Both the position numbers and the translations under genes were made by a program. Positions 2,200 to 2,644 of a stretch of 5,821 nucleotides of DNA are shown piece after piece (the stretch's first letter is position 1; the number at the start of each line of letters is the position of its first letter). Where the stretch lies: the IMG/VR virus record IMGVR_UViG_2660238499_000005; one strand, 5' to 3'. The notes below the pieces were generated by a model, which was not told the DNA's origin, did not search any database, and worked only from the letters and a program-made list of their open reading frames with translations. Origin of the DNA: a virus. Taxonomy: Duplodnaviria > Heunggongvirae > Uroviricota > Caudoviricetes.

Positions 2200-2324
2200 G
2201 CCCTCCCCTCATCACACACCGTTCAAAAAACCACCACGACCTCACTTCAGTTATCGCTATGCGATGCAAGTCACAAAATTAATTCTTTTTGCTATCAAAC
2301 ATTTAATATCAAAACACATCAACT

Positions 2325-2421
2325 AATAGCAATAAGTATTGATATCACCAATAGCAATAGCTATTATCACCATATCGCAACAACACAACGATACGGCAAC
2401 CACCTGATTCACCGTTGCGAT
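2325..2421. repeat. Cluster of short iterated motifs in a non-coding AT-rich block
   Basis: AATAGCAATA direct repeat at 2325-2334 and 2350-2359; TATCACCA direct repeat at 2343-2350 and 2365-2372 (22 bp start to start); 10-bp palindrome AATAGCTATT at 2356-2365; 8-bp inverted repeat ATCGCAAC (2374-2381) / GTTGCGAT (2414-2421). The 8-mer AATAGCAA also occurs at 549-556, just upstream of the repressor promoter. Confidence 0.35.
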
Positions 2422-2644
2422 GACCGCTTAGATCCGCAGCTTGAATTTCAGCAGGCTTCGGGGAGTGCGAGGGATGAAACGGACGCGTGAACGTCGGTGT
2501 GACCAGCTGAAATCAACTCAACATTTCATACCTTAGTCGCTTCAACGAGGCGGCTTAGTTATGACAACCGGCGGCCATCCACCGCCTGAATACGCGCAGA
2601 AGTCTTTATATGTTCAGCAGCCCAGCTTACGGGCAGGAGTTTTT

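Follow-up and report, generated by a model that had tools for sequence, protein, structure and literature searches.

A probable lambdoid left operator and promoter region with an untranslated kil leader in a defective prophage

In the immunity regions of phages lambda, 434, P22 and phi80, the left operator (O_L) lies after the terminator of the cI operon and before the early-left genes. In lambda, O_L consists of dyad operators that share a consensus with the right operator (O_R) and lie over a sigma-70 promoter, the leftward promoter (P_L), and the cI repressor joins a helix-turn-helix (HTH) domain to a self-cleaving S24 domain. In phi80, three annotated CI operators cover the −35 and −10 of pL. 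The same layout, with a repressor of the same domain composition, is found in a 5,821-nucleotide stretch of caudoviral DNA (IMG/VR record IMGVR_UViG_2660238499_000005), the whole of which is called the window here. Its block 2200-2644, located between a cI-type repressor gene and kil, very probably represents the O_L/P_L region of a lambdoid prophage remnant together with the untranslated leader of kil. The motifs of this block, its promoter match, their positions and the complete co-variation of the motifs with the recognition-helix region of the repressor are direct observations.

P_L is the best sigma-70 match in window positions 1-3800, fitting 10 of 12 consensus positions, and it lies inside the repeats of the block and points away from cI. 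The promoter scan places its −35 (TTGATA) at 2339-2344 and its −10 (TATTAT) at 2362-2367 on the plus strand, with a 17-bp spacer, and from this spacing transcription would start at the purine at 2374, a position at which relatives have either A or G. Two dyads cover these elements: O_L2 (AATAGCAATAAGTATT, 2325-2340; position weight matrix (PWM) score 20.8) overlaps the first 2 bp of the −35, and O_L1 (AATAGCAATAGCTATT, 2350-2365; score 24.6) lies over the spacer and reaches 4 bp into the −10. A tentative third operator, O_L3 (AATATCAAAACACATC, 2305-2320), was identified by eye inside the swapped cassette described below, and its left half is identical to that of O_R1. A match to the consensus of integration host factor was also noticed by eye at 2291-2303.

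The same dyads recur on the other side of the repressor gene. The PWM was made from O_L-type dyads alone and run over the window; its best non-seed matches all lie within 455-564, mainly in the cro-cI intergenic region (491-600), with five matches of at least 9.6 at 455-564 against 0.32 expected at a threshold of 10. The matches at 495-510, 524-539 and 549-564 establish an operator consensus common to O_L and O_R. The O_R set (495-589) accordingly comprises the site at 495-510, O_R1 at 524-539, O_R2 at 549-564 and a tentative O_R3 at 574-589 that was identified by eye. Sites 524-539 and 549-564 overlap a putative rightward promoter, P_R, read by eye on the minus strand (TTGCTT-17-TATTAT; −35 at 545-550, −10 at 522-527), with the same geometry and 25-bp spacing as at O_L. 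O_R2 also abuts the −35 of a putative P_RM, the promoter of cI itself, which a promoter scan places at TTGACC 565-570 and TAAATT 588-593; the centre of O_R2 lies about 43 bp 5' of the predicted cI-promoter start, a position that we take to be like that of O_R2 in lambda.

A preliminary description of this block had proposed a second, O_L-like operator set sharing motifs with the repressor promoter region, and this proposal is strongly supported. All motifs on which it relied are present: AATAGCAATA at 2325 and 2350, TATCACCA at 2343 and 2365 with a spacing of 22 bp, AATAGCAA at 549, 2325 and 2350 (the copy at 549 being the left half of O_R2), the sole 10-bp palindrome of the block (AATAGCTATT, 2356-2365, inside O_L1) and two 8-bp inverted pairs, ATCGCAAC at 2374 with GTTGCGAT at 2414 and ATTTCAGC at 2445 with GCTGAAAT at 2506. 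What matters as a repeat is not the TATCACCA pair but a 16-bp dyad that recurs at a spacing of 25 bp. The argument that three copies of an 8-mer are improbable holds for an 8-mer specified in advance (P = 0.0025) and fails for one chosen post hoc; when the window is shuffled, some 35 different 8-mers still attain three copies, and the actual sequence has 82 of them. It is the comparative evidence, not the copy number, that sets the repeats apart from a chance occurrence. Likewise, AT-richness applies only to the core at 2270-2400 (30.5% GC); the block as a whole has 44.3% GC, equal to the window, and 2400-2560 reaches 52.8%.

The comparative evidence comes from 80 viral contigs encoding kil that were mapped against the window, with dyad association scored in 78 loci. 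Positions 2170-2282 and everything from 2374 onward are shared across loci, and the core between them, 2283-2373, is exchangeable. Alignment of 70 unique upstream regions shows that columns in which the consensus differs between two immunity classes are confined to this core, which defines an O_L/P_L immunity-specific cassette of about 90 bp. In class A (42 loci), homology extends over the whole repressor and O_R, and the dyads are those of the window: all 42 loci carry A-type dyads both at O_L (at least three overlapping hits) and at O_R (four hits), with no B-type hits at O_R and a mean of 0.05 per locus at O_L. Class B (36 loci) has another cI N-terminus, with repressor homology beginning at window position 737, that is, at residue 46, and it carries B-type dyads at O_L and O_R with no A-type hits. 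The class B dyads, AACAACTTTTGTTGTT and AACAACTATAGTTTTA, which we presume to resemble the 434-type ACAA-N6-TTGT operator, stand in the same columns as the class A dyads beside a −35 of TTGACG, and AACAACTTTTGTTGTT occupies exactly the columns of O_L2. In all 78 loci, the O_L dyad type, the O_R dyad type and the repressor N-terminus agree.

When one intact phage of each class is compared, only cro, O_R and cI residues 1-45, together with the O_L cassette, differ; both phages have in common the cII-like gene, the C-terminal domain of cI and all of the sequence beyond P_L, and the replication genes are 96.8% identical. The recognition helix lies within the exchanged residues 1-45, so that it moves together with the operators. 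Within each class the helices of the two regulators match, with GVAQPTIWR in cI and GVAQPTVWR in Cro of class A (motif GVAQPT(I/V)WR) and GVSQAAIQK in cI and EVSQQAVYK in Cro of class B (motif VSQxA(I/V)xK). The helix swap is seen when window 601-736 is set against positions 3716-3848 of locus L029; from about residue 82, in the shared C-terminal domain, the repressor protein is 100% identical between the classes.

Two loci, L060 and L063, combine a class A repressor with unrelated DNA upstream of 2408. They retain the dyads AATAC(C/T)AATTGCTATT and AATAGC(C/T)ATTGCTATT, 25 bp apart and beside a −35 of TTGACT, and both this hexamer and the TTGACG of class B align in the same columns as the P_L −35. 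Class A loci vary least at the dyads, with O_L2 near-invariant (mean entropy 0.075) and O_L1 showing the lowest entropy of the block (0.034), and most at the bases immediately outside them. This pattern is the one that repressor operators predict, and it is predicted by none of the rival readings. Class A and class B phages offer a clean natural helix swap, in which rules of DNA recognition are directly testable.

Several observations weigh against the assignment. The 78 loci are closely related and amount to roughly three independent contexts. Only two O_L sites are strong: the third is weak, and the alternative candidate for it at 2281-2296 has a PWM score of just 7.2. The −10 of class B is poor by consensus, and the −35 of the putative P_R fits 3 of 6 positions and was missed by the promoter scanner. 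Finally, operator function does not account for the conservation of the left flank at 2201-2282 or for the very high conservation of the leader.

The position of the block in the genome adds to the argument. In intact relatives (phage PhiR68_2, phage 4A7 and a prophage of E. coli strain 2014C-3307, loci L001-L003), the gene order is O <- cII-like <- cro | cI -> two variable ORFs (open reading frames) -> block -> kil -> gam -> bet -> exo ... xis -> int, and because of this order the block stands at the position of lambda O_L/P_L. The inferred ligand of the dyads is the cI-type repressor encoded at 601-1293 on the plus strand (Pfam HTH_3 and Peptidase_S24), whose closest named relatives are the Salmonella BTP1 c1 and ST160 C2 repressors (86%) and not lambda cI. 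The first gene of the P_L operon is kil (2645-2851, plus strand), encoding a KilR-like cell-division inhibitor of 68 amino acids; AGGAG stands 5 nt 5' of its ATG, and the gene is labelled Kil or cell-division inhibitor in RefSeq and phage records.

From this arrangement we infer repressor binding, its cooperativity, the start at 2374 and the regulatory outcome as follows. Transcription of the cI-moron operon would end at the hairpin at 2170-2200, and the sigma-70 promoter follows some 140 bp later. The neighbouring repressor would bind O_L2 and O_L1, whose centres are 25 bp apart, as dimers and probably cooperatively, and would block RNA polymerase at P_L, so that kil, along with gam, bet and exo in intact phages, is kept off in the lysogen. 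This block would be lifted when RecA stimulates the S24 domain to cleave itself. With cro truncated in the remnant, the surviving circuit would be the repressor acting on P_L-kil.

The terminator that closes the cI-moron operon lies at 2170-2200 on the plus strand, where a 9-bp hairpin (AAACCCGGC/GCCGGGTTT) is followed by a T-run, and both a terminator scan and an inverted-repeat scan support it. Homology to relatives with different moron genes restarts exactly at 2170-2173, and the terminator is the positional equivalent of lambda t_imm. Downstream of it, the conservation profile outlines a conserved left flank of the cassette at 2201-2282, in which variable patches (2199-2215 and 2237-2245) give way to an invariant stretch at 2246-2282. 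This flank is common to immunity classes A and B and is not found in L060 and L063. A 13-bp palindrome, ATCGCTATGCGAT (2253-2265), is located within the invariant stretch, roughly 90-130 bp 5' of the predicted start.

On the other side of the cassette, the predicted P_L transcript runs for about 270 nt from 2374 to kil without a conserved ORF. The earlier statement that the block holds no convincing ORF is borne out, and the non-coding stretch reaches beyond the end first given for it, as far as the start codon of kil (ATG, 2645). Relatives carry stops or frameshifts in both small ORFs, at 2183-2326 and, on the minus strand, at 2168-2269. The first part of the leader (2374-2526, plus strand), which contains the two 8-bp inverted repeats and a CA-rich tract at 2378-2389, is nearly invariant in relatives. 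Substitutions in 2441-2644 show no synonymous excess in any frame (synonymous to non-synonymous 7:17, 10:14 and 6:18), as against 24:5 in the own frame of kil. A rut-like (rho utilization) C-rich tract was also seen by eye at 2374-2410.

A hidden, longer Kil- or N-like protein was considered and rejected. The candidate frame opens at 2474 with (M/V)KRTRERR..., an Arg-rich N-terminus, and is in frame with kil; where the window has TAG at 2534-2536, about half of the relatives have CAG, and in these a 125-residue ORF would run through kil. The frame shows no synonymous excess, its start codon is not conserved, some relatives carry a 5-nt indel, HK225 has in-frame stops, and no similarity to N proteins was found. 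The TAG/CAG polymorphism arises because T2534 is an unpaired bulge of an RNA hairpin, H1.

This hairpin belongs to a structured RNA element at 2527-2586 on the plus strand, which comprises H1, supported by covariation and RNAalifold, and a conserved box with a second hairpin, H2. H1 is formed by the pairs 2527-2530/2560-2563, 2532-2533/2557-2558 and 2535-2540/2550-2555, and at its base UCAUA pairs with the AUG at 2561. The invariant 24-nt box (AUGACAACCGGCGGCCAUCCACCG, 2561-2584) follows H1 and contains H2 (2570-2574/2582-2586). Of 210 collected instances, a non-redundant set of 32 served as the covariation alignment. In it, 98% of the H1 cells are paired, compared with 27-50% when the partner columns are slid, and changes on both sides of a pair affect 71 cells; shuffles give 21.8 ± 3.5 such cells, and none of 500 reaches 71. 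The six central pairs each occur as two to six pair types, and RNAalifold independently predicts the same H1. A covariance-model search found the element either present with a near-invariant box or absent, so that the covariation evidence concerns H1.

The element behaves as a discrete module. Covariance-model matches include phi80, HK639, HK225, KO-TP1, BHUENT6 and S9-5, and copies lie in loci L086 (2998-3070), L168 (2498-2569), L167 (2477-2548), L292 (1498-1570), L293 (1495-1567) and L291 (1498-1567), so that lambdoid phages of Escherichia, Klebsiella, Enterobacter and Salmonella are represented. By the same model it is absent from most HK225-type kil loci, from Rac and from HK022. In HK225 itself, a 64-nt stretch corresponding to window 2523-2586 is 95% identical and kil is 72% identical, with the sequence between them scrambled; in phi80 the same stretch directly follows N and tL1A, and in HK639 it is partly annotated as a terminator. 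Usually the element stands right after the T-run of a terminator in the early-left operon, and in some phages a T-run after H2 gives a terminator-like structure that is absent from the window. Further downstream, at a variable distance from the box, lies a conserved block, GCGCAGAAGTCTT (2594-2606, plus strand), whose reading frame differs between phages; among the short frames that open at the AUG at 2561, all three frames are used across this conserved block (GCGCAGAAGTCUU). In Salmonella phage S9-5 the box has lost 3 nt without a change of frame. Selection on coding as well as on the RNA may therefore bear on the element.

The best guess at its role is a translation-coupled attenuator that gates the kil-gam-recombination module. 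H1 would occlude the AUG of a short frame containing Pro-Pro-Pro, and H2 would serve as a terminator in some phages. No Rfam family matches the element, its box sequence was not found in the searchable literature, and it appears to be undescribed. Its site is one at which control over the early-left expression of a toxic gene would be exerted. Of the findings made here, the element is more valuable than the operators.

The very 5' end of the predicted transcript has a second feature of possible regulatory interest. Positions 2378-2389 (CAACAACACAAC) form a perfect 12-nt complement of nucleotides 72-83 of GcvB, its GU-rich R1 seed, and this is the only such GcvB-complementary 12-mer in the window. 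The predicted duplex between the first 30 nt and GcvB reaches −30.0 kcal/mol, the best of 1,656 window tiles; that of AgvB, a validated prophage anti-sRNA that mimics GcvB targets, is −22.3 kcal/mol with a 10-nt perfect match. Like its counterpart in AgvB, the CA-rich tract begins at transcript position 5, counted from the predicted start. The match came to light post hoc, in a tract of low complexity, and a GcvB mimic at the leader 5' end is offered purely as a hypothesis. If it were true, the seed would tie prophage induction to the amino-acid-transport regulon of the host.

These two features support the strongest alternative, according to which the transcribed half of the block is a regulatory RNA, either a sponge that would act on GcvB upon prophage induction, in the manner of AgvB, or an attenuator of kil-gam-recombination built from H1, an upstream ORF and H2; it would add to the O_L/P_L function rather than replace it. 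The 12-nt complement with a duplex stronger than that of AgvB, the strong covariation at 2527-2586, the pairing of the H1 base with a conserved AUG, the terminator-like H2 variants and the in-frame deletion in S9-5 all favour it, and Rac of E. coli K-12 yields a small RNA (sRNA), KilS, from the 5' untranslated region (UTR) of kilR (PMC8175672). However, P_L is repressed in the lysogen, and the whole leader folds no better than shuffles (z = −0.05). By the match probability of a single 12-mer, roughly a hundred such 12-mers are expected by chance per E. coli genome, the tract is missing from L060/L063-type variants, and no terminator follows the seed to free a short RNA. Moreover, leader and element are unlike AgvB, KilS or any Rfam family (Rfam 15, cmscan E <= 1, gave no match within 2200-2650; inspection of the leader and AgvB, made by eye with no alignment, revealed no similarity; and the leader shows no sequence similarity to KilS or the region upstream of Rac kilR), and most HK225-type kil loci lack the element. 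As an account of the transcribed half this reading is therefore rather unlikely. That at least one of its two components, the element as a cis-regulatory RNA or the 5' GcvB-mimic seed, has a real and previously undescribed regulatory function is a somewhat better, still tentative, prospect. A small-RNA locus in the sense of an independent gene, as first suggested, is not supported, yet the transcribed half does carry features at the RNA level.

A second alternative sees in the leader a put-like, factor-independent antiterminator RNA of the HK022/HK639 type that replaces N. In its favour, the leader is long and highly conserved, and no N-like ORF lies between P_L and kil: 2374-2644 holds no conserved ORF and nothing similar to phi80 N or lambda N, and no nut site occurs in the leader. 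The terminator-like hairpin and T-run that separate kil from gam (2876-2893), in a lineage without recognisable N or put function, also speak for it, as does the suggestion of put for N-less lambdoids (PMC12315714). Still, blastn and nhmmer found no similarity to the HK022 early region that holds putL and putR, blastn found none to the annotated putL-like RNA of HK639, and the leader shows neither exceptional folding nor an Rfam match. In phi80 the element at 2527-2586 occurs alongside N/nut, and in HK639 alongside put, which makes it unlikely as an antiterminator, and the put reading as a whole is improbable. The sole boxA-like string found, CGCTCTTAA at 2151-2159, lies upstream of the terminator, 11 nt 5' of its hairpin, within a part specific to this moron cassette, and it is not present in L001 or L002.

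The repeats might also be functionless, the block being a mosaic junction conserved through recent recombination. The flanks on both sides of the cassette are indeed nearly identical across phages, as expected for recombination linkers. This reading is nonetheless very improbable: it leaves unaccounted for the tracking of the repressor N-terminus and O_R by the dyad type, the dyads kept within the unrelated flanks of L060 and L063, and conservation above that of the surroundings.

Scarcely credible is the idea that TATCACC, noted at the outset as a match to the lambda half-site consensus (TATCACCGC), is a lambda-type half-site serving a lambda-like cI, for example in cross-immunity. TATCACC does match the first 7 of 9 bases of that consensus, in two copies. 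These are direct copies 22 bp apart with no inverted partner in the block, GGTGATA occurring only at 3660-3666. The first copy has its CACC bases in some of the most variable alignment columns, L060 and L063, with the same repressor, lack the motif, and that repressor is nearest to those of BTP1 and ST160. On this sequence evidence, TATCACC is to be regarded as incidental. An origin or iteron remnant, also proposed earlier, can be virtually dismissed: it has in its favour an AT-rich core with repeats at roughly helical-phase spacing, but only two strong repeat units (two to three sites in all) exist, each dyad-symmetric over the −35 or −10, the replication genes O and P lie far away, beyond cI in intact relatives, and the repeats are exchanged with the DNA-binding region of the repressor and not with the replication genes.

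The window in which the block lies is a deletion-riddled, defective lambdoid prophage remnant. The cro gene survives as a 44-nt stub (490 to 447, minus strand), and two accessory ORFs lie between cI and the terminator at 1376-2095. A truncated gam (2927 onward, Pfam Gam) follows kil, and after it come a DUF1382 gene and the 3' end of an integrase. Internal deletions are visible at 447, where the truncated cro meets tail-fibre and invertase fragments, at about 3113, where gam is cut, and at a further joint near 3490 that leads into the integrase 3' end. Rfam reports a full-length match to IS009 at 289-489 on the minus strand (177.7 bits, E = 1.7e-43), which overlaps a fragment of a tail-fibre-assembly gene (255-422, minus strand; Pfam Caudo_TAP) and extends into the cro stub.

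A tRNA-Arg gene (3738-3811, minus strand) adjoins the prophage. To the right of the prophage, the ORF at 3991-4686 is fimZ by name in RefSeq records matching that part of the window, and further ORFs there are presumably sfm-type fimbrial genes. Both window ends (1-57 and 5765-5821) match a multi-copy element found at a median of 14 places per E. coli genome, which we take to be IS1 termini. The intact window occurs in none of the complete E. coli genomes; these match it best where a full prophage occupies the same site. The two accessory ORFs have no Pfam match above cutoff, and in close relatives other genes fill their slot, such as a 1-kb ORF and an ASCH-domain gene in phage 4A7.

The architecture of operator and promoter is textbook lambdoid, and the operator finding is in that sense ordinary. 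The accessory slot between cI and O_L is a rexAB-like moron position, corresponding to that of rexAB in lambda. Unlike lambda, the window has 16-bp operators of the AATAGCAAT(A/T)GCTATT type, 25 bp apart, with two strong O_L sites; it lacks N and nut, so that P_L runs through a 270-nt untranslated leader straight to kil; and its immunity classes, with a shared repressor C-terminal domain, are distinguished solely by cI residues 1-45, cro and the operators. No relevant paper was found in the searchable literature for the operator strings. The immunity specificity appears to be uncharacterised, in an N-less lambdoid lineage in which P_L leads straight to kil.

The RNA features also have known counterparts. 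The phi80 region between tL1A and tL1B is homologous to element 2527-2586, and so is a part of the HK639 early-left region in which H2 with its T-run is annotated as a terminator; neither record annotates H1 or the conserved box. In contrast to both phages, the window element has no upstream terminator and no T-run after H2, and it is fused to the P_L leader. AgvB of enterohaemorrhagic E. coli prophages resembles the window leader as a prophage transcript with a CA-rich mimic of GcvB targets at its extreme 5' end. It is a stand-alone sRNA of 51-60 nt with a conserved 3' terminator module of about 42 nt, made at a P_R' moron site (PMC4104026), whereas the window tract heads a long mRNA leader at another location, under repressor control, and its pairing is predicted only.

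By analogy rather than homology, the closest functional parallel of the remnant is the Rac prophage of E. coli K-12. Its racR/kilR region, like the window, belongs to a defective prophage that keeps a repressor and a KilR-type inhibitor with a long kil 5' UTR, and kilR is silenced there by the surviving repressor as well as by NusG/Rho-dependent termination (PMC5793797). RacR is a different type of repressor, the structured element is absent from Rac, and the upstream regions are dissimilar. The surviving repressor-P_L-kil circuit would imply that survival of the host depends on its retaining the repressor, as it does with Rac.

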